A stretch of 64,000 bases of DNA from an uncultured Planctomycetaceae bacterium (GTDB lineage: Bacteria; Planctomycetota; Planctomycetia; Planctomycetales; Planctomycetaceae): positions 1,056,001 to 1,120,000 of the forward strand of contig CAWFGE010000012.1 of the NCBI GenBank assembly GCA_963815195.1. The letters run 5' to 3'. Shown in pieces: positions 7,915-64,000 of this stretch (position 1 is the first letter of the stretch; each line of letters begins with the position of its first letter). The notes under the pieces are model-generated. The model did no database searches. It was not told where the DNA came from and worked only from the letters and a program-made list of their open reading frames with translations. The translations under genes and the position numbers were made by a program.

Positions 7915-9665
7915 ACGGTCTCTGCCGCATGGCGTCGGGCGGGGGCTTTGGCTTTCGGCGTCTCTTCGGCGGTGGTATCGGAAGCTTCATCAAGCCTCGC
8001 GAAATTGCGGCGCAGGCCCGCGCAGGAGGGGCAGAACACCGGCGGGTCTTCGCCTTCGTGCCGGTGCTCGCAGGCTTCGCAGATCCACAACGGGACTTTG
8101 TAATCCTCGTCGTCGACTTTCTCGGCCTCGGCGGCTTTGAGCTTTTCCCGCCAGTACGCGCTAAACGTCTGCCCGGAGCGATGCTTGAGATAGTAGTCCT
8201 TCACCACGTCTTCGATGAGTTGCGGCAATTGATCGACATCGACGCCGATCTTGTAAGGCAGCGCCATGTGGACCTGACCCGCAAGGCCGCCGCCCAAGAA
8301 CACGTCAAATCCTTCCCGCGTGCCCAGCAGCCTGCGGACGCGGACGCCTTTGAGGCCGATGTCCGCCGTGAAGTGCTGGGCGCAACTCGACGGGCAGCCG
8401 CTCATGTGGATGCGAATTCCGTGCAGCTTGAGCATTCGCTTTCTCAGCTTTTCGATCAACTGAAACATGTGGCCTTTGGTTTCGGTGACGGCGATGTTAC
8501 AGAACTGGCTGCCGGTGCAGGCCATCGTGTTTTGCTCGAACTCGTCGGCATGCACGCTCAAGCCCAGGCTCGCGGCTTCGGTCGCGGCGGCATCTTTGAA
8601 GCCGGCGGGAATATCGATCACCGCGATTCCCTGCTCGTGCGTCGTGCGCAGCTGTCCGCTGCCCCAGCGTTTGCTCAACAGGGCCAGCCCTTCGAGTTGC
8701 CGCCAGGTCATCCGCCCCAGCGGAACCGACAGGCCCATCGTCCACAGTTTGGGATCGCGCTGGCGAAACCAGCCGACCAGTTCATCCCGGCTCGAAGCGG
8801 GGATCGGCTCGGCGACGCAGGGCATGAGGCGGAAGGGAAGATCCTCTTCCAGCCATTCCAACACGCCGCCGATGCCGATGTCTTCCACGAGAAACCGGAG
8901 CCGGGCCCGGTTGCGTTTCTCCCGCGAGCCCTTCGCCCGAAACAGATCGAGAATCGAGCGGGTGACTTCCACGACTTGATCGGGCCGGACCAGCACCGGC
9001 AGATGCCAGGCCAAATGCGGCGTCTGCCCTTGCGTTCCGGCCAAGAGCACTTGAAACAGAACTTCGCCAAGGGCTTCGCGTCGCCAGAAAGCTGATGTCT
9101 TGCGTCCAAAAGTGCACGGAATGATTTTCGGTGCCGTTTAAGCAGAGATTCATCTTGCGGGGCAGGTCGGAATAGTCCCGGCTGCCCACGAAGAGTTCCG
9201 TCACCTGATGGCATAGCTTGCGGGTATCGATCAGTTCATCCGGCAAGAGGCCGCTGAAGGGGTGGGCGAACACGTTGCGAATGTTGTCGTGCCCGGTCTG
9301 CTTGGAATTGAGGCCGACGTTCGCCAGGCGTTTCTCCACTTTGGGCAGATGCTCGATGTCCAACCCCTGCACTTGGACATTGGCCCGCGTGGTCACGTCG
9401 ACGATGCCGTGCCCATATTCGTAAGCGATGAAGGCGATTTCGCGGGCCTGGTCGGCGGACAATTCGCCGGCCGTCAACCGGATGCGGTTCATATATCGTC
9501 CGGCGCATCCCGCTTGCGATAAAAGAATCCATGCCATTTCATGCGCTCCAGATCGGGGGTGTCGATGTCCTGCATCGGCGTTTTTTCCGAAGCGTAGCGT
9601 TCCACATCCGGCCAAACGTCGAAGGGATGTTTTTCCGCCTTCCAAGTTTCCACAGGATTCGCCAT
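7911..9665 (-). CDS. nirA: Ferredoxin-type nitrite reductase with C-terminal rubredoxin-like domain (at least two frameshifts)
   Basis: Merged ORFs 9489..9758, 8782..9720 and 7911..9050; DVTTRANVQ, DNIRN, LPRKMN, CTGSQFC, GCPSSC; tail CEAC..PPVFCPSC. Confidence 0.85.
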
Positions 9666-9712
9666 GAGCCTGTCCATCCGATTGATTGAAAATGAAATAC
9701 AAAGTCCGGCGC

Positions 9713-9908
9713 GGTGGCATCCCCTGAGCGGTAGGCGATAGCCTCCGGCGGGTGGCATCCCCTGAGCGGTAGGGCTAGCCTCCGGCGGGTCGCATCCCCT
9801 GAGCGGTAGGCGCTAGCCTCCGGCGGGTCGCACGCCCTGGGGAACGAAGGGCGTAGTCTTTGTTATCGCCACCGGAATAAAAGCCGGCGGCTAGCGCCTT
9901 GCCGCTCA
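9713..9908. repeat. Three tandem ~38-bp REP-like units plus one inverted copy
   Basis: GGT(G/C)GCATCCCCTGAGCGGTAGGCGCTAGCCTCCGGCG units start at 9713, 9751 and 9788; inverted GCCGGCGGCTAGCGCCTTGCCGCTCA at 9883-9908. Confidence 0.9.
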
Positions 9909-11283
9909 CGCCGATGCCCCGGCGACGCCGAGTTCTTGCCGGCGTTTTGCATTCGCGGCTTCGGTTGCGGCTTTGGCTTCGGTCTCGGCGGCTTCGTTAA
10001 AATTCACCGCGAACGTCAAAAACGAGCAGCCCGTCACCAGACCGCCCAGGATCAACAGAGCCGTCGGCCAGGCGATCGCGCTCGACTTAAACAGAAACCC
10101 CGCCGCCACCGCCCCGGCATTGCCGCCCGCTCCGACGATCCCCGCCACCGAACCCAATGCCTTCTTATTGATGAACGGCACCACCGAGAACGTCGCGCCT
10201 TCGCTCATCTGCACGAACAGGCTAAACAGAATCAGCGTCGGAATGGCGAGCGCCAACACGTCCATTTGCGAGAACAGCATCAAGGCCAGACCCTCGCAGA
10301 ACAGCACCATAAACAGCCACCGCACCCGGCCGGAGAGGCCCCAGCGCTCTCCGAACCTGTCGCCGAACACGCCGCCCAACGTGCGGGCGAAGATGTTCAT
10401 CAGGCCGAACAGGCTCGCGATCAGCCCGGCGAGACTCATGGCTTTGACGCTGTCCATCTGCCGAAATTCCTCGAAATAATCGACGAAATAAAGCGCGGCG
10501 ACGTTGTTGATCGTCAGCTCAATCCCAAAGCAGCCGCCATAGATCACAAACAGCGCCCACACCCGGCGGTCTTTGCAGGCTTCGAAAAACGTGCCGTTCG
10601 TGGCGTTCTTTGCCGGCATCAATCCTTGTTCGCGAAGTGCGCGGAAGTTGCCGCCTGGGGCATCCTGCGTCAAAACGTAATACGCAATCCCGGTGAGTGC
10701 ACACAAAAGGCCGGCGACGAACATCGAGGCCCGCCAGCTCGCGGCACTCGAAAGGCCGACGGTCCCGAGGAAAAACGCGAAGACCAAAGGCATCACCAGT
10801 TGCGTCACCCCGCCGCCCAGGTTCCCCCAACCCGCGGTGGTCGCATTGGCGGTGCCCACGCAGTTGGGGGCGAACATGATGGAGGTGTGGTATTGCGTGA
10901 TGACGAACGAAGCGCCGATCACGCCGATCCCGATGCGGAACAAGAGAAACGAGGTGTAACTTTCCGCGAAGCCGATCGCCATCACGGGAATGGAGCCAAC
11001 CAAAAGCAAACCCGTATAGGCGAGTCGCGGTCCGATCTTGTCGCACAGCCAGCCGATCAGCAATCGGGCGACGACGGTGATCGACACCGAGCCGATGATG
11101 CACCAGCCGATTTGCTCTTTGGTCAGATGCAGCTCTTCGCGAACGATTCTCATCAACGGAGCGATGCCGAACCAGGCGAAGAAGCATAGAAAGAACGCGA
11201 ACCACGACATGTGGAACGCCCGCATCTGGACGGAGGAAAAATCGAACAGCCGGATTCGCGTGGCTTTGCTTTGAAATTCCATG
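9906..11283 (-). CDS. narK: NarK/NRT2 family nitrate/nitrite MFS transporter
   Basis: MRAFHMSWFAFF; nitrate signatures AGWGNLGGG and GAGGNAG; ATG 11283 preferred over the upstream extension. Confidence 0.92.
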
Positions 11284-42764: not shown

Positions 42765-44451
42765 TTACCAAACCGTTTCGCCGACCGGCAGCACGTCGAC
42801 TTCCGGGAGGCGGGCCGCGATGACGGTTGCGAGTTCGGGATGCGATTCAGAGAGTTCCGTCACCGCGGACAACGCTTCCCGCATCTCTGGGCGCGGATGG
42901 AACGGAGGGCGACCGACAACACCGGCAGCAAGCTTTCCGCGCGGCCGGGCTCTTTTTCCAGGGTCCGCGTCATTTGGCGGATCGCTTTGAGCTTCTGCCG
43001 GCCGCCGCGATCGACGCCCGCAAGCACGCTGCACCAGACGGGCGTCAAGGCGTCGGCATCGGGACGGGGAAAACTCCGCGAAGCCCGGCGTTCCAAAATG
43101 TCGATCAGTTGCTGCCGAACGTCGTCGAACGGCGTTTCCAAAAGCCGGCACCAAAACACCGGATCGCCGAACGCCGCCGCGTTGGAGGATTCGTTTTCAT
43201 CAAGCAGCCACGCCCAAGCCGCGGTGCGAATCGGCGCGGCGAGCGAATCGAAAAACGGCAGCACCTGATCGCGGTCATAAACGTCGGTTCGTCCCAAAAT
43301 CGCAAGCGCCATGTAGCGACCTCCGCTGCGATCGCGCTCGATTGGGCTTCGCTCAATTCCACCAACGCCGCGCGGTCGCCGGCGGTCTGGATGCTGCGTT
43401 TTTTTAGAAACGTCAGACCCATCCGGGCCACGGGCGTCGGTTCCGAAGTGGTCAGCCGCACGCAATCGGCCAGCGTCAACCGCTCTCCCGAGACCTTCTC
43501 GGCCATTACCCGGCAGATGGTTTCGAGAGCCGTCAGGTTCTCTGTTTCCAGGAGCATCATCCAAGTCGACAGCGGCCAGGTTTCCAAACCCTGGGCCTGT
43601 TCCAAAAGCTCCGCGGCGAACTGCTGCACGTCCTCTTGCCGATGCGTCAACAGATCCAAAAGCTCGTCGGCCGGGAGTTTTTGAAGCCTTGATGCGTGAT
43701 GCTCGCGGAGCATTTCGATCGCCCACGTCCGCATGGCTTTGGAGCGGGCTTCGAGGACCATCAAAAGCAGTACATCCGCGGAGTCCGGCTGTTTCCAAAG
43801 CTCCGGAAAACTCGGCGCGGGTTTGAGTTCGCCCAGCGAATGACCGGGGCGGATTCTGATGAGCGAGGAACCGAACTCGAGCGCGGGGTGTTCTCGAAAG
43901 CAGGCCTGCATCAGGCTCCAGCTATCGAGCAGATTTTCGCCCTGGGCCAGATCGGCATCGCGGTACAGAATCAAAAAGCGGGCGACGGCCAGGGGGTAGT
44001 CTTTGGGCCGCCGATAGCCCATCCAGCGAAAGTACCGCCAGGCCCGCCGGCGGAGGTAATACCGCGTGTGATAGGAAAACAGACGCAGGTCTCGTGGCGA
44101 ACTGAGCACGGTCTCTTCGTAACCCGTGCTGGTTTTCCAGTCGTACTTCCAGCGGCGGCGGCGTTCCCGGCGGGCGAGCCGATCGCAGCCCGTGGCAAAC
44201 GCCGCCATCAGCTCGTCGTTCTGCTCTGCTTCCGCCCATTTGAAGAGCCGCTTGATGACGGGGTTATGCCCCCACGCATCCCAAGGCAGATCGAGATAGC
44301 GAAACATCTGCTCGTGCGCCCAAGCCCGGCCGTCGGCGATCCACCGCCCGGTGAACTCGGCCAACAGGGGCATGTCGCGCACCTTCCGCAGCGCCTCGAC
44401 AAACCCGGCATCCTGGGCCGAAAATAACGTCTCAAAATGCGCTTTCGCCAT
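42765..44451 (-). CDS. HEAT/ARM-repeat helical protein (frameshifted)
   Basis: Merged ORFs 43105..44451, 42860..43798 (C part) and 42765..43154; LFSYHTRYYLRRRAWRYFR, LLETPFDDVR. Confidence 0.7.
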
Positions 44452-48224: not shown

Positions 48225-48587
48225 TCACTCCGGCGCGAGAATCTGAGAATTGCGCTCGTTCTCCAACCACCGCCGGATCCGGCCGCGGGTCGAGATCGCC
48301 CCGCCGTTGCCGATGGGCAGTACACAGGCGAGCCATTTCGCCAGCCGCCAGGGCACCGGCTGATAAAGCCCGTCCCCAAACCGCACCGCGACGCCGCGCC
48401 GTTCCAAGGGAGGTTGCCCCTGCGCCGCCGAGAGCCAGTTCCGCAGCAATCCACTGAGCCGGTTTCGCTCCCACCAAGGCAATGCCAGCAATGCCAGCAC
48501 CAGCCGCAGCTCGTCTTCGTTCGCCGGATGCGCGACCGCATCCGGATGCGGCGGCCGCTCGAATCGTAACCAGAGGATGTTTTGCAT
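48225..48587 (-). CDS. Hypothetical protein, last gene co-oriented with the packaging module
   Basis: 120-aa ORF with protein-like composition. Confidence 0.5.
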   Translation of the reverse strand: MQNILWLRFERPPHPDAVAHPANEDELRLVLALLALPWWERNRLSGLLRNWLSAAQGQPPLERRGVAVRFGDGLYQPVPWRLAKWLACVLPIGNGGAISTRGRIRRWLENERNSQILAPE

Positions 48588-48666
48588 TTTGTGCTCCCAC
48601 ACTTTATTGAACGCGTCTCACTCCGAAGTGAGGGAGGAGAGAGATTAGAGGATGGAGGTTAGAAAA

Positions 48667-50218
48667 GGTACAGGTTCAGGACATGGGTAACAGTTCTGGT
48701 TCAGGACATAGGTGACACTTTAAGGGAAAATCTGGTCGAAAGGAGACCAGATTATGCCCTGGAAAGAGGTCGATGTTTTGAATCTGCGGACAGAGTTTGT
48801 GCTGCGTGTGTTTGAGTCGAAGGTCCCATTTGCCGAGCTGTGCCAGGAGTATGGGATCAGCCGCAAGACGGGTTACAAATGGAAAGAACGTTTTTTGGAA
48901 CAAGGCTTGGAGGGGTTGGGCGATCAATCGCGTCGACCCGCTCAAAGTCCGAATCAGGTCGGCGAGGAAACCCTTTGCCGGATGGTCAAGTTGAAGCTGG
49001 CGCATCCGGCTTGGGGACCACGGAAGATCCGCGCCGTGTTTGGTCGGAATCATCCCGAGGTCGATCTGCCATCGGAAAGCACGTTCAAGCGGGTGCTCGA
49101 CAAAGCGGGCTTGGTCAAGCGCCGCCGGCGTCGCGCTTCGGTGGAGTCGGGCCGGATTCAAAACCGTCTCGAAGCCGAGCGGCCCAATCACGTCTGGACG
49201 GTCGATTTCAAAGGCTGGTGGCGCACCGGGGATCGGATGCGCTTCGAGCCCTTGACGGTGCGCGACGCTTACAGCCGCTTCATTCTTTGCGCGCAGGCTT
49301 TGGAGAACAGCCGCACTCAGACCGTTCAGAGCGCGTTCGAGCGATTGTTCCTCCAGCAGGGCTTGCCGGAAGTCATTCGCAGCGACAACGGCTCGCCGTT
49401 TGCTTGCACGCGGGCTCCATTGGGTCTGAGCCGTCTGTCGGCCTGGTGGCTGGCATTGGGCGTGGACCTGGATCGGATTCCGCCCGCGCGGCCGGATCAG
49501 AATCGCGCGCACGAGCGAATGCATCGGGACATTGCTTGGGAGTTGGAATGCGACGCCGAGGCCACGCTCCCCTCCCAACAGGCGGCCTTGGACGTATGGC
49601 GCGCCACCTACAACACCGAGCGTCCGCACGAGGCTCTGGGGATGCAGGTTCCCGCCGATTTGTACGTTCCCTCGCCGCGCCGCTTCGAGGCGGACGAGTT
49701 GGTGTTGGAGTACCCGGCGGAGTATTTGCGCCGCCATGTGGGCCCCAGCGGGGCGATCAAGGTTCACAACATCCGCATCCCCGTTTCGGAAGCCTTGGCC
49801 GGCTGGGACGTGGGCTTGAAGTACGAAGCGGCGAAGCGTTACGGCTTGTGGTTTTGCCGGCTGCGGTTGGGCGAAGTGGACCTGGAAACCCAGAAGTTTA
49901 CAGCCGTCAAGTCGTAAGACTGTTGGGGGCTTTGCCCCCAAACCCCCAGGATTTTTCGCCTGGGGTCCAAAGCAGGTTGGGGAAGACAAGAAGGGAAGCG
50001 AACCCTGTGGCGCGCTCCCCTCCTGCTTCGGACCCCACGCCGGCGCTCGGGTTGCTTCCCAGCAGAGCCCTATCCTCCTCGTGGGTAAGGCAGTCTTCGG
50101 CGCTTTAACCGGAAGGTCTTTAAGAGTTCTCATCATCGTGTTGAGTTCCAACCGAAACTGAAGTCCAGCGCCACCCATGTCCTGACCTAAAAGCGCCACC
50201 TATGTCCTGACTGTTCCA
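48667..50218 (+). mobile_element. IS481-family insertion sequence
   Basis: Two TCAGGACAT(A/G)GGT repeats at each end in inverted orientation (48673-48717; 50168-50211) around a DDE transposase; no clear target duplication. Confidence 0.85.
48754..49917 (+). CDS. IS481-family transposase
   Basis: MPWKE..GISRKTGYKW HTH; WTVDFKG, IRSDNGSPF, HERMHRD, YNTERPHEAL. Confidence 0.93.
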   Translation: MPWKEVDVLNLRTEFVLRVFESKVPFAELCQEYGISRKTGYKWKERFLEQGLEGLGDQSRRPAQSPNQVGEETLCRMVKLKLAHPAWGPRKIRAVFGRNHPEVDLPSESTFKRVLDKAGLVKRRRRRASVESGRIQNRLEAERPNHVWTVDFKGWWRTGDRMRFEPLTVRDAYSRFILCAQALENSRTQTVQSAFERLFLQQGLPEVIRSDNGSPFACTRAPLGLSRLSAWWLALGVDLDRIPPARPDQNRAHERMHRDIAWELECDAEATLPSQQAALDVWRATYNTERPHEALGMQVPADLYVPSPRRFEADELVLEYPAEYLRRHVGPSGAIKVHNIRIPVSEALAGWDVGLKYEAAKRYGLWFCRLRLGEVDLETQKFTAVKS

Positions 50219-50254
50219 AAAGACCCACCAACCTCGAATCTCCATCCTCTACCC

Positions 50255-51639
50255 TCACACCGTTTGCTCGTTCCGTTGCGAATGTTCCGAAGAGATCTCC
50301 GCGCATCACCCGCGGGTCCGCCTTATCCCGGCGGGCGATCTCGGCTTTGCTCAAGATGCCCGCTTCCACCAGCCGCACATCGGCCAGGCGTTCTTTCGGG
50401 CGGTCGCGAACGGCGAGATCGGGAAACGTCCATGCGGGTTTGATCCGCTCGAACGCGTTCGCCGGGAGTTGGCCCGCCGCGATGAATTGCGACAGCACCC
50501 ACCGCCAGAGCCGGTTCCATTCGCCTGCGAAAAACAGTTGCTCGCTGTGGAACAATTTGACCGCGGGGCCTTCGGCGACGAGCGTGGAGGCATAGTTGGC
50601 GTTGGAGGCATCGGACGTGAGCATGTATTCGGGCAATCCGCTTCCCGCCGCCGCGCAGAGCAACATCAATCGGCCCAAGGGAACGCCGTCGCGGAAGTTC
50701 GTCGTCGGGTTCAGGTATTGAAGGTCGGTGCCTTCCGAGGTGGTGAGGATCGTGCCGGCCCGATATTTCTCTCGCGGGATGACAGAGCCGGAATCATAAA
50801 TCGGCCCGCGTTCGCCCACGTCGGCGACGATGCTCGAATCCGTGCCGCCCGTGACCTTCCGCCAGAGCACGATCGAGGCTTGCAGCTTGCGGGCGATGAG
50901 CGTCGTCTCCAGCCAGCGCCTCAAACTGCCCTAAGGTTTCCAGCACCGGGGCGAACCAGGTCAGGCCCCGCTTCTGGTTCGAGTCGGCGTTGATCCGCGT
51001 ATGCAGCACTTCGCCGGCGGGAATCCGCTCCGCCAATTCGCCCGAAGCGGGATCGATCCGCAAATACGCGATGCGGGTTTCCACATCTTGAGCCGCGGTG
51101 AGAATGCCCTGCGTGCCGGGATGCTCGGTGGTCTCGCCGATGGTTTCCGGATCGAGAAACCGCACCGTCGGCCCCTCGTCCGACTCGGCGAACAGCCTCA
51201 AAAAACATTCGCCGTCCCGCCAGGTCCGCCGGGCGAACTCGCGGTAGGAAAAGTGCGCGCGGTTCGCCGAGAGAAACTCGGACCACAGATGATCGGCCAT
51301 CATCGTCAGCTTTTGATCGTGCTCATCCGCGCCGGGCCAATGCGGCACCGCGTGCACCGATAAGCCCGGCCCCGTGACGTAAATCTCCAACAGCCGGAGC
51401 ATGTTTGATGCATGCGGATTGCTCGCGACGAGCCGGCGCGCCTGCGTGCGGGCGTCGATGCGGTCCTGCTCATCGAACCGATTCCCCCCGCCGCCCAACA
51501 GCAGCCACTCGCCGGCGTCATCCGCCACCGGACAAGGCCCGCCGCTCTCGGCCAGTTCCAACAACCGCTCCTGCATCAAGCGCTCGTAGCGGGCCTTGAG
51601 CCGGGCCGTCTGATATTTCTCTCGCAGATAATTGAACAT
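50255..51639 (-). CDS. Phage portal-like protein (frameshift near 50920; C-terminus uncertain)
   Basis: RRTWRDGECFLR, VLHTRIN..QKRG, GLPEYMLTSDASNANYAS; follows TerL; merged ORFs 50794..51705 and 50187..50924. Confidence 0.78.
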
Positions 51640-51667
51640 GGCGTTGTCCTTTGAAATTGAAATGAAA

Positions 51668-51866
51668 AGGCGAGCGGGGGGCGTCAGCCCCCTGGTTATT
51701 CTCAAAAATCAGAAATTCAGTACTTCCAAAAATGCCTGAGCCGCGCACGAAGTAAGCGGTCTTGCGCCGCCTGAGTCCCTGAAAACCGCTTACTTCGTGC
51801 GCGGCTCTTGGTGTTTTGTGCATAACCAGGGGGCTTACGCCCGGGCATCAGCCCCCCCGCTCGCCT
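51668..51866. repeat. Nested REPIN-like structure
   Basis: Outer pair AGGCGAGCGGGGGGCGTCAGCCCCCTGGTTA (51668) and inverted copy (51823-51866); inner perfect 23-bp pair GAGCCGCGCACGAAGTAAGCGGT (51738-51760, 51785-51807). Confidence 0.85.
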
Positions 51867-51868
51867 GC

Positions 51869-53278
51869 TCACCAGGCAAACCCGCCGTCCGCGGCGGGCG
51901 GGGTGATCGCGAGCCACTCCGCGCTCACGGGCTGCTTGAGCGCATGCCAACACGCGGCCCCCAATGCAAATGCGCGGTCATCGTGAAAATCCCCGTCCCG
52001 CCGGTGATCGATTCGGCAGCGGCCGGAAGGCGATTGCCGAAAGAGCAGCGATGCCAGTTCCGTTTCCAAATCATCCCGCAGCGGCGTACCCGACCGCTTT
52101 CCGCAATCGGGATACCAGGCGACTTGCTTTTGCCGAATCAACCGATAGAGCGTCAAAGCCAATTCGTGATTGCCCTTGCCGCCGGCGAACTCGAACCGCC
52201 GAGTTTTCACCTTCCGCTCCCAGGCTTGAATCACTCCCAAAAGCTGCCATTCATCGAGGATGAACTCGACCCGCTGAAATTTCCCCGAGATGCGTTCGAT
52301 CCAATCGCTGACCCAGGCCACCTGCGTCGGCGAATCGGGCCGCGGCACGACCACATCCATCCGATCCACGACGAGCCGATAGGAATCGTCGCCCACCGCT
52401 TCCTTGTGCAGCACCACGCCCACGGTCAGGTCGCGCTTCTCGGCATAATCGATCGCCGCGTAGTATTGCCGGCCCGGCTGGCCTTGGGTTTGCTCTTTCA
52501 AAGAGTCGTCCCGGCAAGCCTCGGCCTCGGCGAGCGTGACAAACTCCCCGTCCGAATGCTGCCAGCGGTTGAGCCACAACCGCTCGAACACCGGCGCGGG
52601 CAAGAGGGCCTGCTGCTCGGCCAAATGTTGTTCCGTGATCCACGGCGCCTGCGGGCCGTCCAAGGTGGAGAACGCCCACATCGGGTTTTCGGTTTGGGCA
52701 TTCTTGCGGGCGGACTCGCGGACCTGCCACTGCCAACCCTGGCCGATGCCCGCGTTCGTCAGCACCGCCAAAACACAATGCGGACGTTTCGCCGCCGTGG
52801 ACAACAGCGAATACCACAAATCCGGCTTGGGCCAATGGCAGAGCTCATCACAGATCACAAAGTCCACCAGCAAGCCCCACGAGCTTTGCACGTCGGAGGA
52901 AATCACCGTCAATCGGCTGCCGGTCTCGCGGTTCTCGATGCGATGTTTGAGCAGCGTCAACGGCTGGAAGATCCAGGCATTGAGATGCATCAGCCGCTCA
53001 AACGCATCGCGGATCAACGCGGCCTGGTCCTGATCCGCCGCCGCCACGATGCCGCTTAAAGGCCGGCCGGCAAACCGCAGAATCCAAGCAATCTGCATCG
53101 CCATGTCCGAGGTCTTCGCGTGCCCGCGCGGGCGTTCGATCCAGGCCCTGCAAACATTCGTCTCCACCGGCAAACCCGCCAGCTTCCGCCAGGCGGGATC
53201 GAGAAGGGCAAAGTCCCGCGACTGCCAGGGCTGGATGATTTCGCCGAACGGCCGATCGTCATCGCCCGTCAAACGCAT
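51869..53278 (-). CDS. terL: Terminase large subunit
   Basis: Walker A PRGHAKT, Walker B VICDE, coupling motif LTNAG, RNase H-like AIDYA and HDDRAFA. Confidence 0.85.
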   Translation of the reverse strand: MRLTGDDDRPFGEIIQPWQSRDFALLDPAWRKLAGLPVETNVCRAWIERPRGHAKTSDMAMQIAWILRFAGRPLSGIVAAADQDQAALIRDAFERLMHLNAWIFQPLTLLKHRIENRETGSRLTVISSDVQSSWGLLVDFVICDELCHWPKPDLWYSLLSTAAKRPHCVLAVLTNAGIGQGWQWQVRESARKNAQTENPMWAFSTLDGPQAPWITEQHLAEQQALLPAPVFERLWLNRWQHSDGEFVTLAEAEACRDDSLKEQTQGQPGRQYYAAIDYAEKRDLTVGVVLHKEAVGDDSYRLVVDRMDVVVPRPDSPTQVAWVSDWIERISGKFQRVEFILDEWQLLGVIQAWERKVKTRRFEFAGGKGNHELALTLYRLIRQKQVAWYPDCGKRSGTPLRDDLETELASLLFRQSPSGRCRIDHRRDGDFHDDRAFALGAACWHALKQPVSAEWLAITPPAADGGFAW

Positions 53279-53753
53279 ACCAGCCCGAAATCTGCTCGGC
53301 GATGTACGACAGGCTCTCAACGTCCAGGTTTGCTTCAACTTCGTGCGGCAGGTCAACGCCCACCGCGCGGGCCAGTTCAACAAGCTCGGCATCGGTCAAA
53401 TCTCCCAAAAGTTCATCGAAGGTCGCCGGTTCGGTCTCGGCAGGTTCCGCGAATGTGGGCGGCGGGAAGAGTTTGAGCCACGCCTGCTGCGCGGAGACGT
53501 TGCCTTCCATCGCCGTGCGGTAGAGGACCGCCATCACGTTGCCGCTCAAGACGCCCGTAATCTCCCGCACCCGCGTGCGGAAGCCGGCTTCTTCGTTCAC
53601 GGTGTGAAGGAACGCCTCGACCGAAACGCCCACCTGCGCGCACGCGGCCGCCGGGGATGCCCCGCGATAAAGCAGGTCGAGCACCGCCGATTGCTGGGTT
53701 TGGGAAAACGGCGAGAATTCCTCTGTGGGTTCGCACGCGGTTTCTTCATCCAC
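53259..53753 (-). CDS. Putative terminase small subunit (HTH)
   Basis: AACAQVGVS HTH, LYRTAMEGNVSAQQAWL; overlaps terL start; GTG start inferred. Confidence 0.65.
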   Translation of the reverse strand: MDEETACEPTEEFSPFSQTQQSAVLDLLYRGASPAAACAQVGVSVEAFLHTVNEEAGFRTRVREITGVLSGNVMAVLYRTAMEGNVSAQQAWLKLFPPPTFAEPAETEPATFDELLGDLTDAELVELARAVGVDLPHEVEANLDVESLSYIAEQISGWYAFDGR

Positions 53754-53785
53754 GTGACCAGCCGGCTTACACCGGCCGCTCGCCT
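53754..53785. repeat. REP-like copy (AGGCGAGCG family)
   Basis: GTGACCAGCCGGCTTACACCGGCCGCTCGCCT. Confidence 0.7.
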
Positions 53786-53793
53786 TTGGATTT

Positions 53794-55069
53794 TCACTTT
53801 GCTCCTTTGTGGCCTTTGCCCCTTTGCTCCTTCCGATTATCGAAGATGTAGTACACCGGCTCCGCGTAGCGGCTTTTTTCGTCGGTCTCTTTCGTGAGGA
53901 GCTTTTCTTTTTGGCCATGTCTGGGTCCTGATCCATAAAGGGCGGAATGCCCGCGGCGGGAACGCCGGGCGGGCCGGGTCAAGCCGACGCGACGAAAGCC
54001 GGCTTTCTCGAAAACGGGGTTGATGTGGCCCATCTGCGTGAGAGTTTCGATCCAAGGCCAAGGGGCGGCCCGGCAGCTTTCGCGAACGAACGCCGCCGCC
54101 AACCCCGCCCCGCGATACACCGGATGCAACACCAACCGCGACAATGTGACGAGCTGATCGTTCAAACTTTGAATCGAAACCCGAGACCAGCGGCCGGGCT
54201 TCCCGAAGAACTTGTTCCGCTGCCTGAGCGACACGGCGGGCGAAGTCATCACGCAGATCCCGATCGGCTCGTCGCCATGCCAGAGCAGCGTGACGAACTT
54301 CACGAACCCGAGGTGATGGCTGCGGTAATGCCAGCGAGCAAAATACGGCCAGTCGCGTGCCGATCCGGTCGTGATCTGGATGCCATTTTCGAAGCTGATC
54401 CGCCGTTTTTTTTTGCGCGGGCTCGGCGGGAGAATCTTCATCGGGCCGGACGCAATCGATCCCGCCGTCCAATCGGCAAACAACAGACAGCGACGGCGAA
54501 AGATCGCTCAAAATATCCTCGTGCGTCGTCGCGAGCAAAAACCCGATGCCGGTGCGGTCGGCCAGCCGGCGGAGATTGAAGGCGACCACCTTCGCGAGCG
54601 TGCGGTCGAGCGTCGCGGAAAATTCATCGGCCACGATCCAATTCGGCTTTTGAGACAAAGCGAGCGCCAATCGAAACCGATACCGCTGCCCATCGCTGAG
54701 TTCGGCGGGCGTCCGCAACAACAGCCGGGCTTCGCCGAGACCGCACGCGGCCAGAATCCCCATCGCCTCCGAAACAGGAATCTCCAAAGCCTCGATCAAA
54801 ATCCGCTCGCCGAGTTCCAATTCATTGAGATTCAATACCGCTTGACCTTCCGCCGCCAACCCATCCGCGGCCGCTCGCATCAAGCTCGATTTCCCCGACC
54901 CCGACGCCCCGGTAAAGCACACCACATCCCCCGGACGAATCGGCAACTCGAAGTCTTCCGCAATCACATAAGCCCCCGTTTCAAACCCGATCCCAAAATG
55001 ATCCATCACCACCGCCGCCCGGCAAGACGGCTGCTTCGCGCGGAAGTCATAGGCAACATTGAGTTTCAT
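53794..55069 (-). CDS. ABC-type ATPase fused to GNAT acetyltransferase (COG2401-like), frame change near an A9 run
   Basis: GASGSGKS, LSDGQ, IVADEF, TTHED in ORF 53837..55069; ARWHYRS, SRLVLHPVYRGAGLA, FEKAGF in ORF 53794..54483. Confidence 0.8.
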
Positions 55070-55183
55070 CGTTCATCCTTTGTCAGTAATAGTTTTCAGT
55101 TTTTTGCCGAGCCGAGCCCCGTGAGGGGCCGGTTATGCCAGTTTCATGTTTCATGTTCTTGGTCATAGGGGCTTGGTCATTCA

Positions 55184-55741
55184 TCATTCCGAAATGTGCA
55201 CTCGCAAAGCATGGTCGCGAATCAAATCATCCAGATCGGGCCGGACATCGTCCCATTGCTCCCGGGGCACTTCGAGGGTGACTTTGACCAAATCGCCATC
55301 CGGTTCTTCGTCGGGGACGAAGGCGGGATCGGGAGCCAGCACCAGGTCGCGGAGTTCCTCGGCGTCGAAGCCGGTGAGCGTGGCGTCGAAATCGGGAAGG
55401 GCATCGAGCTCGGCGATCAAGCCCACGAGTTTTTCCGCGTCCCAATCGCCGCCGACCTGGGAGTTGTTCAAGGTGATGTTGAGCGCCTTTTCGCGTTCGA
55501 GGCTCAACGACACCACGACGACTTCGATTTCCGAAACGCCCTGGTCCTTGAGAATCCCGAGCCGTTGATGCCCGGACACGACGTGCCCCGTTTGCTCGTT
55601 CCACACGATGGGCTGCACGAGGTCGAACTCTTTGAGGCTCCGGGCCAGCCGCTCGTAAGCCGGCATCCCCGGCCGCAGGGAAATTCGCGGGTTATAGGGC
55701 GCGGGCTTGAGCTTCGTCAGCGGGATTTTTTGGATGTTCAT
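55184..55741 (-). CDS. ParB/Srx N-terminal domain protein (phage type)
   Basis: LKPAPYNPR, SLKEFDLVQPIVWN, VSGHQRL, EKALNITLN, GDWD. Confidence 0.85.
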   Translation of the reverse strand: MNIQKIPLTKLKPAPYNPRISLRPGMPAYERLARSLKEFDLVQPIVWNEQTGHVVSGHQRLGILKDQGVSEIEVVVVSLSLEREKALNITLNNSQVGGDWDAEKLVGLIAELDALPDFDATLTGFDAEELRDLVLAPDPAFVPDEEPDGDLVKVTLEVPREQWDDVRPDLDDLIRDHALRVHISE

Positions 55742-55788
55742 TTTCGTTTTGCCTCGGAACCGATTGATGTAAGAACGTTTTTGAAAAT

Positions 55789-55870
55789 GTGAGCAGCACG
55801 GCGCTAGCTTCCGGTTTCGATGAAAGAAGTTCGTCAGATCACGACCGGCGGCTAGCGCCGTGCCGCTCAC
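55789..55870. repeat. REPIN-like inverted pair (GCTAGC family)
   Basis: GTGAGCAGCACGGCGCTAGC ... GCTAGCGCCGTGCCGCTCAC. Confidence 0.8.
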
Positions 55871-55897
55871 GTTTTCAGAAAACCGAATCGCCAACAC

Positions 55898-56191
55898 CTA
55901 TCCGCCATCCTCTATCCTCTCTTCCTCATCGGTTGGTGCATTGAAAAAATACTCGCGGACTTCCGCTTTGATGTTCTCGATGCACCGGCACACGTGGCCC
56001 GGTTGGTGCCGAAACGCTTTCGCGATCTGCTCCAGCGACCAGCCCGCGTTCTCCCGCAGAGCCAGCATCGCCAGGTACTTCCACCGGCGGGCATCGGCGT
56101 CCGCGAACCCATCCGAAATCGTTTGCCAAAACTCATCCGCCCCCGTGCGGGGCAAGAGCACCTTCACGTTTCTTTGATCGACGACAGACAT
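55898..56191 (-). CDS. Small HTH protein (sigma region 4-like), first gene of the module
   Basis: LRENAGWSLEQIAKAFRHQPGHVCRCI. Confidence 0.65.
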   Translation of the reverse strand: MSVVDQRNVKVLLPRTGADEFWQTISDGFADADARRWKYLAMLALRENAGWSLEQIAKAFRHQPGHVCRCIENIKAEVREYFFNAPTDEEERIEDGG

Positions 56192-56412
56192 CAGCAGTTG
56201 TTCCCCGTTGGAATTCTTGGGTTTCTACCCTATAGGAGCCACTTTGCGCCACAAGATAAATATACAAAAGAACACTTGTGCTAACTCTCCAGCATGACGG
56301 GAGTTGCGAGCTTTGCAAAGTGGGAAAAGTCGTGTTGGCGCAAAAAAATGCAAGATTCCCGCCGGATGTCGTTTGCGACCAAAATCGCCTAGAATGACGG
56401 AGAGAGCCAAAC

Positions 56413-56582: not shown

Positions 56583-57611
56583 ATGGAGCGTTATCAGAAA
56601 CAGGTGTTGTTCGCGGGCTTGAAGGAAGAGGGGCAGCGGAAGTTGGTGGAGAGCCGGGTGCTGTTGTGCGGCTGCGGGGCCTTGGGGACGGTGCTCGCGG
56701 AGACGTTGGTGCGGGCGGGCGTGGGGTTTGTGCGGATTGTCGACCGCGATTTCGTGGAACTCTCCAACCTCCAGCGGCAGGTGCTGTTCGATGAAGAGGA
56801 TGTCCGCGAGCGCTGGCCCAAAGCCGTCGCCGCCGCGCGGAAGCTCGCCGCGATCAACAGCGAAGTCACAATCGACGCCGTCGTCGCGGACATCGATCAC
56901 ACGAACATCCTCACGCTCGCGAAGGATGTGGATCTGATTCTCGACGGCACGGACAACTTCGAGATTCGCTTCCTCATCAACGATGCCTCGCTCGAGACGG
57001 GCCTGCCGTGGATTTATGCCGGCGTCATCGGCAGCCACGGGCAGACGATGACGATTTTCCCCCACAAGACGGCGTGCCTGCGCTGCTTGATCGAAAGCAT
57101 CCCCGCGCCGGGCACGACGGAGACCTGCGACACGGCGGGCGTGTTGGGGCCGGCGGTCAATGTGGTCGCGTCTTTGGAAGCGACGAGCGCCCTCAAAATC
57201 CTCTCCGGCCAACCGGAACTGGTGGAGCCGAGCTTGATGATCCTCGACGTGTGGGATCTTTCCTTCCGCAAGATGAACGTCGCGAATCTCCGCGACCGGG
57301 CCGACTGCCCGGCGTGCCGGCATGGGGAGCGGGTGTGGCTTTCCGGCCAGAAAGGCGGCGAATCGACGGTGCTCTGCGGCCGAAACGCCGTCCAAGTCCG
57401 CCCGCCGGAGAAGACGCAGCTTTCTCTGGAAGACCTGGCCGAGAAACTCAAAACGTCGGGCGAAGTCCAGTCCAACAAGTTCCTCTTAAAACTCACGCTG
57501 AAAAACCCCGACTACGAGTTGACGGTTTTTCGCGACGGGCGGGCGATCATCAAAGGCACCGAAGACATCGGCATCGCCCGCGGCTTGTACTCGCGGTACA
57601 TCGGAACCTGA
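56583..57611 (+). CDS. moeB: ThiF/MoeB family adenylyltransferase
   Basis: GCGALG, DRDFVELSNLQRQ, DGTDN, CLRC, TCDTAG, CPAC. Confidence 0.88.
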   Translation: MERYQKQVLFAGLKEEGQRKLVESRVLLCGCGALGTVLAETLVRAGVGFVRIVDRDFVELSNLQRQVLFDEEDVRERWPKAVAAARKLAAINSEVTIDAVVADIDHTNILTLAKDVDLILDGTDNFEIRFLINDASLETGLPWIYAGVIGSHGQTMTIFPHKTACLRCLIESIPAPGTTETCDTAGVLGPAVNVVASLEATSALKILSGQPELVEPSLMILDVWDLSFRKMNVANLRDRADCPACRHGERVWLSGQKGGESTVLCGRNAVQVRPPEKTQLSLEDLAEKLKTSGEVQSNKFLLKLTLKNPDYELTVFRDGRAIIKGTEDIGIARGLYSRYIGT

Positions 57612-57641: not shown

Positions 57642-58086
57642 TCTCGAGAATTGACCAGCGGGCGGGGCTGGAGGGGAATTTTTGCGATGCGGGAAGATTT
57701 CGCGATTCTTTTTCCCGGCCCGCTGGTTTGATTAGATGCAGGACTGCATTGGATGGGGCGGAAATAAGCAGTCGGCCCTTGGAAAAATCGGGTTGGTGAG
57801 TTTCAACCGGTCAAAGCGAACTCTCACCAACCCGGGCACCCAACCCCAGCGGTCGCGTTGCGCCGGGAAGGGTTGTTTCATTGTAACCTGGCCGTTTCGG
57901 TCCACAACCTTTGATTCCTCCTCTTTTTTTGGGGTTGGTGATTTTCAGTCGGGTCACAAGTTTGCGAGCATTCGCGAATGGGCCGGCGGTTTTGCCGGAG
58001 GAACACCCGAACCCGGCGAAACCCGTCCCCTTACTCAACTCAGGCACGCGGTTTGATGCGACTATTTTTTGTCAAGGAGCAAACGA

Positions 58087-59101
<1,015 letters not shown>

Positions 59102-59130
59102 TCTCTGTCTCGGATGAAATCAGGAATCCC

Positions 59131-59160
59131 AAAGCCGCGCAGCGGCGCTGCGCGGCTTTT
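59131..59160 (+). terminator. Strong hairpin after DUF1559 gene
   Basis: AAAGCCGCGCAGCG-G-CGCTGCGCGGCTTTT. Confidence 0.6.
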
Positions 59161-59194
59161 GAACTCTGTTTATTTTTTTGTTTGAGGAATGACG

Positions 59195-59335
59195 ATGTTT
59201 TTGCGAAAACTCCTTCTGGGCGGCTTGCTAGGCACGCTGTTGTTCGCGATGGGTTGCGGGGGCCATAAAGACCCGCCCAGCCCCGGCCAGGGAACCGATG
59301 CCCCGGATGCGCCCATCTCGACCGAGAAACCCTAA
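59195..59335 (+). CDS. 46-aa lipoprotein (below ORF-track cutoff)
   Basis: [54 protein letters not shown]. Confidence 0.65.
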
Positions 59336-60201: not shown

Positions 60202-62905
60202 TTAGGCCGCTTTGGCTTGGACCACGGCGGAGGCGGGGGCGATGGACTTCTTGAGTTCCTCCACTTCCTTTTGGCCCGCTTCCACGGCTTTGCCGGCGGC
60301 GGCGGCTTGTTGCGTTGCCGCGGTGGCTTTTTCCTGGAGCGGTTTGACGGCCGCGGTCAGATCGGCCGCACGCTTCTGGGCGGCGGCGTAATCGGCGGCG
60401 GACTTCGCGGCCGCTTGTTCCGCGGCGGCGACAGCAGCTTGGGCGGTTTCCACGGTTTTGGCTTTTTCGGCGGCGGCCGTCTTGGCCGCTTCGAGGCCTT
60501 GGGCTTTCGCCGCGATCAGGTTCTTCCAAGCGGTCACGGCGGCCGTCACGTCTTTGTCGCCGGGCGATTTCGCGGCGGCTTCCTCGGCGGATTTGAGGGT
60601 CGTTTGAAGAGCCGGCACGAGAGCCGTCAGCGTGGTCACCGTTTTGCCGGCTTCGGTTTGAGCGGCGGCCGCGTCGGCAAATTGCTTCTTGGCCGCGGTG
60701 ACGTTGGCGTTGGCGGTTTCGACTTGTTTTTGAACCGCCAGCGCGGTCTGGTTGGCCGAGGCGAGTTCTCCCTCGGCTTTCTTGAGTTCCGCCGCCGCCT
60801 GGTTCGCCGCGGCCGCGAGTTCGTCGGCTTTAGACTTGAGGGCGGTGAGCGCTTTCTGCTTGGCGCTGATGTTTATTTCGGTTTCGAGACGGGCCACGTC
60901 TTTTTGAGCCGCCGCGAGTTGGGCCGCCATCGCGTCGGCGGCCTGTTTCGCCTGGGCCGCTTTGTCTTGCGCGGGTTTGAGCGTGGGCGTCAATGCGGCG
61001 ACCTGTTTCTTGGCGGCTTCCAGTCCGGCCAGAGCGTCGGCGAGTGATTTTTCCATCGCCGCTTGCTCCTTTTGCTTTTGCTGCATGGCCGCGGTCTTTT
61101 CGGTCTGGAGCTTCTTCGCCGCGGCGAGGGCGGCCGCTTTTTCATCAACCTGGGCTTTGAGCTTACCGACGGCTTCCGCGAGGGCTTTGTCGTCTTTGGC
61201 TTTCTCCACCGCTTGCTGGGCTTTGGTGAGCGCTTCTGCGAGCGGCGGGACCACGCCGGCCAACGTATTCGCGGTGTTGGTGGCGGCTTGGACTTCCTTG
61301 GTCAACGCGTCCACCGCGGCTTTGGATTTGGCGATTTCGCCGGGAAGCGCTTTGGACTGGGCCTCCAGGTCGGTCGCCTGTTTTTGGGCGGCCGCCAGGT
61401 CGGTTTGGATTTTTGTCGTCGCCGCAGTCATTGCAGTCTGAGGCATCGGCGAGTTTTTTGTGTTCCGCCTGTTTCGCGGCGAGAGCGGCTTTCGCTTTAG
61501 CGAGTTGATCTTCAAGCTTCAGCGGGTTCGCGGTGAGTTCGCCCACCGCTTTGCCGTCCGCGGCGGCGAAGACTTTGATCGCTCCCGTCCAATCGCCGGC
61601 GATGACCTGGTCGGTCTCGTCGCAGATCGTCACTTGGAGAGCAATATCGCCAAAGGCCGGAAACGCGCGGAGTTGTTTGCCGTTCTGGTCCCAGAGCTTG
61701 GCGGTCTTGTCCCGGCCGCAGGTGACGATCCGGCCGTCGCGGGCGAACTCGACCGAGGCCGCGCCGCCGCCGTGGGCATTCCAGGACTTGACGTTGCTGC
61801 CGTTGACGACTTCCCAGAGCTTGACGCTGCCGTCTTCGCTGGCCGAGGCGACGAGGTTGGAATCGCTCCGCCAGGCAATGTCGCAGATGGACCCTTTGTG
61901 GCCGTTCAAGCTCAGATATTCGCGGCCGGTTGCGGCTTCCCAGACCAACAGGCCGCCGTTGCGGTCGCCGGTGGCAAGCAGCACGCCGTCGGGGCTAAAG
62001 GCGATCGAATAGATCCAGTCGGTGTGCTTTTTGAGTTCGTATTTCAGTTCGCCGGTCTTGGTGGAATACACGCGCACGACTTTGCCCGGCCCGCCCAAAG
62101 CGACCAGCGTTTGATCGGAGCTGATGTCGGCGGCGAGGACGGTGTCGAGCTCGTCGCCGACTTCGATCACGCGTTCGCCCGTGCGGACGTTCCAGACCAC
62201 GACTTTGCCCTGGGCCGCATCGTGTCCGCCGCCCGCGAGCAAGAGGCTGCCGTTGTGGCTGAACTTGAGCGACTGCGGCACGCCTTCCGGGAAGGGCAAA
62301 ATGCCCGCGAGATCGAGCGTCTTGGTGTTATACAGAATCACCTGCTTCTGCCCGCCCACGGCCACGAGCGGCGACCAGGGGTTGCTGGCGAGCGCGGTGA
62401 CCGCCGTGGTGTGTTCGGTGTGCACGACGGGTTCGAGGCTCAACAGTTCCGGCATCGGCGGCGGACCTTCGGGCCGGCCCGTGGGACTCGCGGCGAGCGA
62501 CAGATCGAGCTTGGGCTTGTTCGCGATGGGCTTGCTGCCGGAGTTTTCGAGCGCTCCGCCGTCGATCCATTGGCGGATCAACGCCAACTTGTCCGCGGGG
62601 AGCTTGTCTTGTTTGGGCGGCATGTACGGTTCGGATTCATGGTTGACGAGCATGAACAGGTAGCTGTTCCCGGCGTCGCCCGGTTCGATCACCGCGCCCG
62701 ATCCGCCGCCCTGCATCATCGAGGTGTAGTTGAGCAGGTCGAGGTCCGCCACTTTTTTGTTCGTGTTGTGGCAGGTCGCGCAGTATTGGCGGAAGATCGG
62801 CTGCACGTGGTCCTGGTAGGTGATCTTCGCCGGCGCGTCCGCCGCCCGGACGGAAAGCGGAGCCAAAACAATCGTAACGAAGGCAACAAGTCGGGTCGTG
62901 TTCAT
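60202..62905 (-). CDS. Planctomycete cytochrome c, WD40 repeat and Ala/Lys coiled-coil protein (frameshift near 61430)
   Basis: Signal peptide; CATCH, MPP..WIDGGA; WD repeats; merged ORFs 61163..63112 and 60202..61515. Confidence 0.85.
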
Positions 62906-62945
62906 AAGAAGTGCTCCAAATCGGGATGCCGATTGAGAGTGAGTG

Positions 62946-63090
62946 AGGCGAGCGGGGGGTGTCAGCCCGGGTGTCAGCCCCCCGGTGACGTGGATTGTTT
63001 GAGATACAGTCAACTTGAAATCGTCTTCTGGAAATCGAGAGTCTCTTCTTCTTTGCGAATAACCAGTGGGCTTACGCCCGCCGCTCGCCT
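62946..63090. repeat. REPIN-like inverted pair (AGGCGAGCG family)
   Basis: AGGCGAGCGGGGGGTGTCAGCCC.. (62946) and TAACCAGTGGGCTTACGCCCGCCGCTCGCCT (63060-63090). Confidence 0.8.
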
Positions 63091-64000
63091 TAATGGTTGA
63101 ACAAGAACTCACGGGAGTTCAAGAGGGCCCAGAACACGTCTTCCAACACGGGTTTGGGGTCTTTCTCCTGGGCGAGGACCGCGACGAGCGAGGTCCGTTC
63201 TTTTTCGTCGGGTTTGCGGGTCAGGCAGCGGATGTAAAGCTCTTCGAGGATTGCCTCGGGCTTCTTGCCTTCGGAAAGCTGGCGTTCGATCAGCTTGCCC
63301 TGCTGGATTTTGCTGTTGGCCGTGTCGCCGTTGAGCATGTGCAAAGCCTGCGACAAGTTCGGCTCGACTTTGACTTCGCAGGAGCAGACCGTCTCGCGGC
63401 TCGCGCGGCCGAAGGTCGTCAGGAAGTAGGTCGAGGTGTTGCCGTTGGCGATCTGCACCGCGCGGGCCCCCAACGGCAGGCCTTGGAATTTGTTCTTCGT
63501 ATCGGTGACCTGCGTGATCGAATCGAGCATCATTTCCGCCCGCACCCGGCGGAGATTCGCGTGCGAAAAGTTGCGGTCGTCCGAGGCGTTCGTTTCGTTG
63601 GTGGCGGTCGAAAGCTGATACGTCCGCGACAGGCAAATGTCCCGCACGAGCTTTTTGAAGTCGTAGTTGTAATCGGTGAACCGCTTGCCGAGTTCGTCCA
63701 GAAGCTCCGGGTTGACGGCGGGATTGGAGACCCGCACGTCGTCCACTTCGTGAATAATGCCCCGGCCGAGGAAGTGGGCCCAGACGATGTTCGCGAGGTT
63801 GGTGGCGAAGTAGGGGTTCTCGGGCGACGCGAGCCATTTGGCCATCACTTCGCGGCGGTCTTTGCCTTTGACATCGGGGACGGCACCGCCCAGGAACTTG
63901 GGTTCCATCACGCGGTTGTCCACGGGATGCTTGACATCGCCGCTGCCCCGGTTGTAGATGATGAGTTCCCGCGGGTCTTCGCCGCGCTTGCGGCCGATTT
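63090..64000 (-). CDS. DUF1549/DUF1553 protein, C-terminal part (runs off window)
   Basis: NPYFA..WAHFLGRG, NPELLDEL, SRTYQLS, QALHMLNG, WALLNSREFLFNH. Confidence 0.9.
   Translation of the reverse strand, partial: IGRKRGEDPRELIIYNRGSGDVKHPVDNRVMEPKFLGGAVPDVKGKDRREVMAKWLASPENPYFATNLANIVWAHFLGRGIIHEVDDVRVSNPAVNPELLDELGKRFTDYNYDFKKLVRDICLSRTYQLSTATNETNASDDRNFSHANLRRVRAEMMLDSITQVTDTKNKFQGLPLGARAVQIANGNTSTYFLTTFGRASRETVCSCEVKVEPNLSQALHMLNGDTANSKIQQGKLIERQLSEGKKPEAILEELYIRCLTRKPDEKERTSLVAVLAQEKDPKPVLEDVFWALLNSREFLFNH

Follow-up and report, generated by a model that had tools for sequence, protein, structure and literature searches.

Why should a planctomycete chromosome keep the genes of a phage DNA-packaging motor at a locus that holds no capsid gene? 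This question is raised by positions 48225–56191 of the window, a stretch of 64,000 nucleotides (G000:C12:1056001-1120000) from the genome of an uncultured Planctomycetaceae bacterium (8.9 Mb, 94.6% complete). The minus strand of this locus encodes a helix-turn-helix (HTH) protein, a ParB-like protein, an ABC ATPase, a GNAT protein, a small terminase-like protein (TerS-like), the large terminase TerL, a portal protein and an open reading frame (ORF) of 120 aa. It holds the regulator and the DNA-packaging genes of a set that derives from a phage and is inherited in Planctomycetaceae, and a block of head genes was found about 450 kb away on the same contig. On balance, the two blocks together likely form capsids that carry host DNA from cell to cell, in the manner of a gene transfer agent (GTA).

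Every gene that a first-pass annotation of this DNA had placed on one strand was present, as was the insertion sequence (IS) within the module:

56583..57611, plus strand: moeB-like host gene, the ancestral anchor, adjoining 25 of 53 orthologous TerL loci
56225..56253, minus strand: bipartite promoter-like motif GCGCAA...TAGGGT, common to the distant head block (low family-matrix score of 15.7)
55898..56191, minus strand: small HTH regulator with weak resemblance to sigma region 4 or the DnaA C-terminus (weak HTH_23 match), a candidate activator
55778..55881, no strand: host palindromic repeat with 316 matches in the genome
55184..55741, minus strand: ParB-N-like protein of the type accompanying phage DNA-modification enzymes (phrog_620, E 7e-40; N-terminus of phrog_498)
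54415..55069, minus strand: ABC-ATPase domain (PF00005, E 4e-10; phrog_293, E 5e-32)
54406..54414, minus strand: conserved slippery run of nine A (A9) joining ABC to GNAT, a predicted programmed frameshift
53794..54405, minus strand: GNAT domain, predicted DNA acyltransferase (phrog_886, E 2e-17)
53259..53751, minus strand: TerS-like protein (phrog_4044, E 7e-4), with an inferred start in a frame open to 53936
51869..53272, minus strand: TerL (PF03354 above cut-off; phrog_9, E 1e-25), ATPase and nuclease motifs intact
51665..51870, no strand: host repetitive extragenic palindromic (REP)-like repeats in the TerL-portal spacer, with genome-wide matches
50187..51639, minus strand: lambda-family portal (Pfam PF05136, E 3e-17), in two frames in this assembly
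48667..50217, plus strand: recent IS481-type IS between portal and 120-aa ORF (transposase 48754-49917)
48225..48587, minus strand: conserved 120-aa ORF (120–125 aa) with no significant family match

The ATPase and nuclease motifs of TerL, which had been described as intact, were kept over 53 orthologues (PWQ, RPRGH.KT, DFV.CDE, TNAG, AIDYA, DE.Q and HDDR; we take the conserved blocks to be the motifs so named). Profile searches of the genome with PF03354 and PF03237 returned no second terminase. The composition was host-like as annotated, with a GC content of 0.57–0.63 for the module versus 0.60 for the contig. REP-like repeats had been placed in most spacers. Three spacers (moeB-HTH, HTH-ParB and TerL-portal) contained repeats that occur genome-wide (191–384 BLAST matches each) and the GNAT-TerS spacer a degenerate one, but the ParB-ABC and portal-IS spacers contained none and the IS-ORF spacer only a short repeat with five matches. 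Two more full and two partial near-identical copies of the IS481-type element lie elsewhere in the genome. The 120-aa ORF follows the portal gene wherever it was found, and precedes the protease gene in unsplit clusters; owing to this constant position, it is regarded as part of the system. Structure prediction, as suggested earlier for this ORF, gave a confident model (pLDDT, predicted local distance difference test, of 87) and no significant fold match (best Z 5.9; none below E 0.001 in Foldseek, and only clusters without names in Atlas).

The head block (C12:651364-654579) was located by matching the genes that relatives carry downstream of the portal to the genome itself. It comprises a protease/scaffold gene with conserved His and Ser motifs, a decoration protein gene, the major capsid protein gene (PF25209; E 3e-18 on an intact capsid orthologue) and a small adaptor-like gene. 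The label "capsid-less" given by the first-pass annotation thus holds for the locus in the window but not for the genome. In G070, a genome of the same genus, the head block adjoins a pcm gene, and the pcm orthologue of the present genome lies 2.3 kb beyond the 120-aa ORF. The packaging site was probably once the place of the head block as well. Two further PF25209 capsid-like genes were noted, one inside a satellite-like island (L263; G000:C8:~56000-67000) and one at C16:~9500-10400 (L264). Since only the terminase of the window was matched in the genome, such capsid-like islands might exploit the domesticated motor.

The gene set is widespread in the family. Among 151 family genomes, matches were obtained for TerL in 85, capsid in 87 (E ≤ 0.001), portal in 75 (E ≤ 1e-60), tube in 47 and hub in 59. 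When only strong matches were counted (our own cut-offs; TerL in 78 and capsid in 77 genomes), TerL and capsid occurred together in 72 genomes, TerL only in 6, capsid only in 5 and neither in 68; hence, 72 of 77 capsid carriers have TerL. No statistical test was applied to this co-occurrence because related genomes are not independent. TerL, capsid and portal were found together in 70 of the 151 genomes, i.e., about half, and the system is nearly always single-copy. Cultured carrier genera are Planctopirus, Thalassoglobus, Planctomicrobium and Maioricimonas. Two near-complete genomes (G095 and G146; loci L034 and L036) keep HTH to TerL under selection with the capsid not matched; the portal match was partial in G146, and none was obtained in G095. 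Seven loci (L081-L085, L087 and L088) hold second, divergent TerL genes (30–47% identity) with no other module genes nearby; three of these have a common upstream gene, and all seven were excluded from trees, dN/dS (the ratio of nonsynonymous to synonymous rates) and motif counts.

Could the locus be an ordinary prophage or a recent prophage remnant? Across 351 genomes of the phylum, strong capsid matches fell only within Planctomycetaceae (14 of 19 matched), and the best capsid match outside the family had an E of 7e-38. In 50,697 records of GenBank phages, the capsid was not matched at all and TerL just once, weakly. Relatives matched by the capsid alignment were labelled Planctomycetaceae, Planctomycetales or Planctomycetota, one being just "bacterium", and the nearest metagenomic capsids without a taxon name were at most 58% identical. 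In favor of a prophage, four of five IMG/VR loci carry the same genes, with 69–99% capsid identity; their gene set is that of the chromosomal cluster, so that these four contigs are likely pieces of chromosome called as proviruses. A temperate prophage would carry contiguous integrase and replication genes. Among 74 proteins (selected ORFs of 11 loci and the window), no integrase, phage replication or lysis family was recognized at E ≤ 1e-5, while one flank among these loci holds a transposase. The lack of integrase, lysis and replication genes stated in the earlier description was borne out in these scanned proteins, and a tail was not found in the genome. The gene set moreover occupies a fixed site, is split over several loci, is nearly always present in one copy and has host-like dS. 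It is neither strain-specific nor neutrally evolving, nor are there close phage relatives, as a mere remnant would have required. The prophage explanation is thus already largely refuted and retains very little probability.

Selection was assessed on 13 close pairs, and medians were taken over pairs with dS of 0.05–2. Median dN/dS was 0.049 for capsid, 0.089 for TerL and 0.125 for portal, compared with 0.037 for RpoB; values for ABC, GNAT and the 120-aa ORF were 0.12, 0.16 and 0.15. Within this genus, capsid (0.06–0.09) and TerL (0.09–0.10) were similarly constrained. The dS of the module genes was close to that of RpoB, and low dS in GNAT was confined to its two ends. For 43 genomes, the capsid tree (FastTree supports; G012 left out) had 19 of 40 splits in common with the RpoB tree, with a maximum of 3 in shuffles, and contradicted none of 23 strong splits. 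In a 17-genome control, host moeB shared 6 of 14 splits with RpoB, capsid 5 and TerL 3. Capsid congruence and RpoB-like dS therefore indicate mostly vertical descent, with possible exchange or poor signal for TerL. The proposed check of dN/dS and tree congruence thus returned purifying selection and a capsid that follows RpoB, TerL doing so less well.

Two frame disruptions had gone unnoticed earlier: the portal gene lies in two frames (break near 50920), and ABC and GNAT lie in different frames around the A9 run (54406-54414). The latter recurs in relatives. When each distinct ABC-GNAT junction is counted once (56 in all), GNAT lies in the -1 frame in 42, is fused to ABC in 9 and lies in +1 in 5. 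The run is A9 in 33 junctions, A8 in 6 and A10 in 2, while 3 have a shorter run and 12 have none; seven fused genes are without a run and two have A10. The whole genome contains only 26 runs of at least nine A or T. A run length fixed at nine fits polymerase slippage, and the sequence A-AAA-AAG also fits ribosomal -1 shifting. The A9 run is predicted to be a programmed frameshift site joining ABC to GNAT. The +1 frame in the window was considered as a lesion; this was dropped, as both the orthologues and a contig from run X1 (of low depth and possibly from the source sample) indicate a -1 site whose homopolymer was called too short. The run X1 contig has one extra base in the A9 run (insertion at 54405) and further insertions at 50299 (a 2-base difference), 57859 and 58445, the last two outside the module.

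The portal break raises the possibility that the system is functional in the family and decaying in this strain. Frameshifts near 50920 and in the capsid gene around C12:652450, the IS481 insertion and a tail that was not found would all fit decay. Yet portal and capsid genes are whole in both other genomes of the genus, and dN/dS of the broken halves is still 0.06–0.14. Aligned with the portal of G070, that of the window has one gap near 50920 and another near 50300, and the ABC-GNAT junction differs by one base. Frame breaks are also present elsewhere in the assembly: the gene after rpoB has two frameshifts at 98–100% identity, and 2 of 12 host ORFs tested were split. The run X1 contig differs from the assembly by the small insertions given above. 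The portal and capsid frameshifts are thus likely assembly errors, and decay in this strain is improbable. Host genes at 42860-44451, 58069-59268 and 60202-63112 of the window also appear frameshift-split; the insertion at 58445 falls inside the second, consistent with an assembly error.

How could two blocks so far apart act together? The heptamer GCGCAAC was counted in the 200 nt that precede the first gene of each block (distinct upstream sequences, kin included). It precedes HTH in 25 of 43 cases, the portal gene where this comes first in 22 of 25 and the protease gene where this comes first in 30 of 41. In unsplit clusters, too, it stands ahead of the protease gene in 20 of 47 cases. The corresponding figures are 0 of 97 for the capsid gene and 1.7% for the 30,006 windows used as background. 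The second box, taggTTGAA, comes mostly 9–10 nt after the heptamer. The full sequence, GCGCAAC-N9-10-TAGGKTGA, is predicted to be a promoter-like motif that precedes split blocks, and near-identical versions stand at both blocks of this genome. With this genome left out of the training of the matrix, the protease site is among five sites genome-wide that score above 19. Internal copies would explain why clusters break before the portal and protease genes. The HTH protein, found in 68 of 151 genomes of the order (cases distant from TerL included), may bind this motif. When the genome was scanned with the motif for lysis or fibre genes, extra copies preceded no recognizable particle gene; these five (G000 C13:1091034, C13:305286, C20:132552, C22:299034 and C23:424213), some with common downstream sequence, may represent a repeat element or promoters of small RNAs. 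Another motif, TACCAGAGTCA-like, occurs in 18 of the 43 moeB-HTH intergenic regions and may belong to either gene.

Relatives with an unsplit cluster reveal what the complete system looks like. This cluster of ~19 kb lies beside divergent moeB and reads HTH, ParB, ABC, GNAT, TerS, TerL, portal, 120-aa ORF, protease, decoration, capsid, three small genes, head-tail joining, neck, terminator, tube, tape measure, a 149-aa distal-tail-like gene (named by position), hub, an MptE-like gene and two glycosyltransferase genes. The order from HTH to tape measure is unbroken in at least 6 of 53 loci, and elsewhere breaks occur at recurring points. The tape measure has 223–263 aa (39 loci). The predicted hub structure (pLDDT 90) matches phage hub/Tal proteins of the gp27 fold (E 1e-14), and the C-terminal tail of the hub is rich in Ser/Thr (median 186 aa, 38% S+T; 41 loci); our guess is that the neighboring glycosyltransferases glycosylate it. 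A 75–80-aa coiled-coil protein with a C-terminal hydrophobic helix (F34; L063:3006-3254 and homologues) is encoded inside the cluster and is a candidate holin or XhlA-like lysis protein; it was not found in G000.

The search of the genome for capsid and tail genes proposed earlier was successful for the capsid only. Profile searches for neck, terminator, tube, tape measure, F25, F34, F35, distal-tail-like and hub proteins gave nothing significant; with a genome 94.6% complete, these genes are described as not found rather than absent. Among the 70 genomes with TerL, capsid and portal, both tube and hub were found in 39, the hub alone in 12, the tube alone in 1 and neither in 18, and some of these absences may stem from assembly gaps. 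The tail-less set also takes in all three g9 genomes, one of them a single-contig genome, and tail-less genomes occupy at least four places on the RpoB tree beside tailed or hub-bearing kin (unrooted, by eye). Four loci (L033, L168, L184 and L188) are without tube and tape measure, and in these the head genes are closely followed by the distal-tail-like gene and the hub, which suggests a collapsed stub tail.

Repeated tail loss with heads kept leads to two other explanations. First, the system may act as an anti-phage device: on infection, the terminase, portal and capsid of the host would cut or misdirect the DNA of the phage, or compete with it for its tails, thereby protecting the population. 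Heads and motor that remain under selection after tail loss fit this idea, and the capsid-only satellite-like islands of the same genome point to helper-parasite conflicts. Since tube and hub, a delivery device that defence does not need, are retained in 39 of the 70 core genomes, and since the predicted DNA-protecting ABC-GNAT would fit export better, such a device appears unlikely. Second, own DNA may be placed in shells for storage, dormancy or controlled release of extracellular DNA, with no infection involved. In agreement with such intracellular or developmental use, heads outlast tails, no lysis enzyme was recognized in the scanned proteins and the system has its own regulon motif. Tails with tape measure and hub are nevertheless conserved in most carriers (tube dN/dS 0.06–0.08 in two pairs), and this use is considered slightly less likely still than defence.

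Transfer of host DNA thus remains the favored function, and the earlier proposal of one locus of a split, domesticated GTA-like system agrees with head genes elsewhere, family-wide conservation, purifying selection, a fixed ancestral site beside moeB and the lack of close phage relatives. How does the system compare with known ones? As far as the available part of the formal GTA classification goes, three independently exapted groups are recognized and planctomycetes are not mentioned (PMC9662315). Measured against the definition given there, the particle proteins are Caudoviricete-derived, the genomic part of full endogenization is seen in two loci here and several in relatives with no integrase recognized, and inheritance is mostly vertical, co-diversifying with the host, TerL being weaker in this respect. 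By the same definition, GTAs enclose random host DNA, have heads too small for their own loci and pass the DNA on to other cells. As to packaging of its own locus, loci 450 kb apart would hardly fit one ordinary head, but unsplit clusters span just ~19 kb. By predicted anatomy and evolution, the system is GTA-like; it is not filed here as a GTA.

The closest parallel is RcGTA (Rhodogtaviriformidae), to judge from the accessible text of the sources. Both have a head-tail cluster without replication or integration genes, spread over loci (PMC9662315), vertical inheritance and a very short tape measure (PMC9662315, PMC7296036), that of RcGTA having 113+83+20 residues (~216 aa; PMC7296036). In contrast to RcGTA, the planctomycete system belongs to another phylum, combines a lambda-family PF05136 portal with a PF25209 capsid, and has the ParB/ABC-GNAT module with its slippery site, the Ser/Thr-rich hub and glycosyltransferases; its tail was not found in 18 of 70 carriers. 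PF05065 was not found in the genome, and the capsid profile had no PDB sequence match to any solved capsid. Both findings argue against membership of the RcGTA clade, for which we assumed the Pfam assignments of RcGTA, and domestication appears to have been separate.

A phage GNAT coupled to an ABC ATPase is predicted to acylate a DNA base, according to the available portion of PMC7824862. The pair found here resembles this system of Iyer, Aravind and colleagues in that coupling, and is unlike it in being host-inherited, beside the terminase and mostly split by the A9 frameshift site; PHROG matches point to its membership in that family. Capsid-forming phage-inducible chromosomal islands (cf-PICIs) have terminase, portal and capsid without a tail and borrow phage tails; they are mobile, carry integrase and replication genes and package themselves. 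In this genus, likewise, terminase, portal and capsid were found and a tail was not. The planctomycete system is instead fixed, split and tailed in most carriers, and was therefore not assigned to these mobile islands, which are patchy among strains. Encapsulins are domesticated HK97-fold shells (PMC8987985, planctomycetes being unmentioned in its accessible part) that stand alone and hold protein cargo, whereas this capsid goes with terminase and portal; with TerL in 72 of 77 capsid carriers, an encapsulin was rejected as well. No description of the system was found in the literature searched, which covered few subscription journals and no supplements. In the parts available, PMC13092639 reads phage tail genes of new planctomycetes as prophages, and the sole planctomycete mention in PMC7947584 is an unrelated prophage.

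Several observations weigh against a GTA-like system of vertical descent. Eighteen of the 70 core genomes, all three of this genus among them, gave no match for tube or hub, and ordinary GTA delivery leaves these tail-less carriers unexplained. No endolysin was recognized in the scanned cluster proteins. Portal and capsid are frameshifted here, and the comparison with run X1 shows neither break corrected. The TerL tree shares 13 splits with RpoB and contradicts 6 of 23 strong ones (43 genomes); in the 17-genome control, 3 of 8 strong splits were contradicted by TerL, 1 by moeB and 0 by capsid. Resolution of the deep nodes is poor, and within-genus pairs make up many of the shared splits. Five of 56 metagenomic capsids, from sequences without known genomic context, fall inside the chromosomal clade. 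With regard to the regulon, the motif copy at the HTH site scores just 15.7, five more genus-type copies precede no recognizable particle gene, and four whole genera are without the HTH regulator (0/16, 0/19, 0/5 and 0/4).

If the blocks do act in DNA transfer, the following course is proposed. The HTH protein or an alternative sigma factor would switch on both blocks via GCGCAAC-N9-10-TAGGKTGA, probably in few cells. Slippage at A9 would yield ABC-GNAT fusion protein as a minor product, which the ParB-like protein would guide and which would acylate DNA bases and so shield the packaged DNA from restriction by the recipient. TerS and TerL would pump pieces of the chromosome through the portal and so fill heads that are decorated and have been matured by the protease. 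Tailed relatives would deliver the DNA by a short tail (tape measure of about 235 aa, gp27-fold hub, glycosyltransferase neighbors), and heads of the tail-less lineage would need a borrowed phage tail or direct uptake. More speculative, and only tentatively put forward, is the full version of this idea: an independently domesticated planctomycete GTA that shields its packed DNA, obeys one dispersed promoter regulon and in several lineages is tail-less, hijacking phage tails or host uptake.

A separately domesticated system in cultured genera would add a phylum to those with GTAs. Regulator and motif make induction directly testable, and the full-tailed, tube-less and tail-less variants form a natural series for asking what keeps particles under selection. 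If DNA transfer is true, the system could provide a native gene-delivery tool for planctomycetes, which are hard to manipulate.

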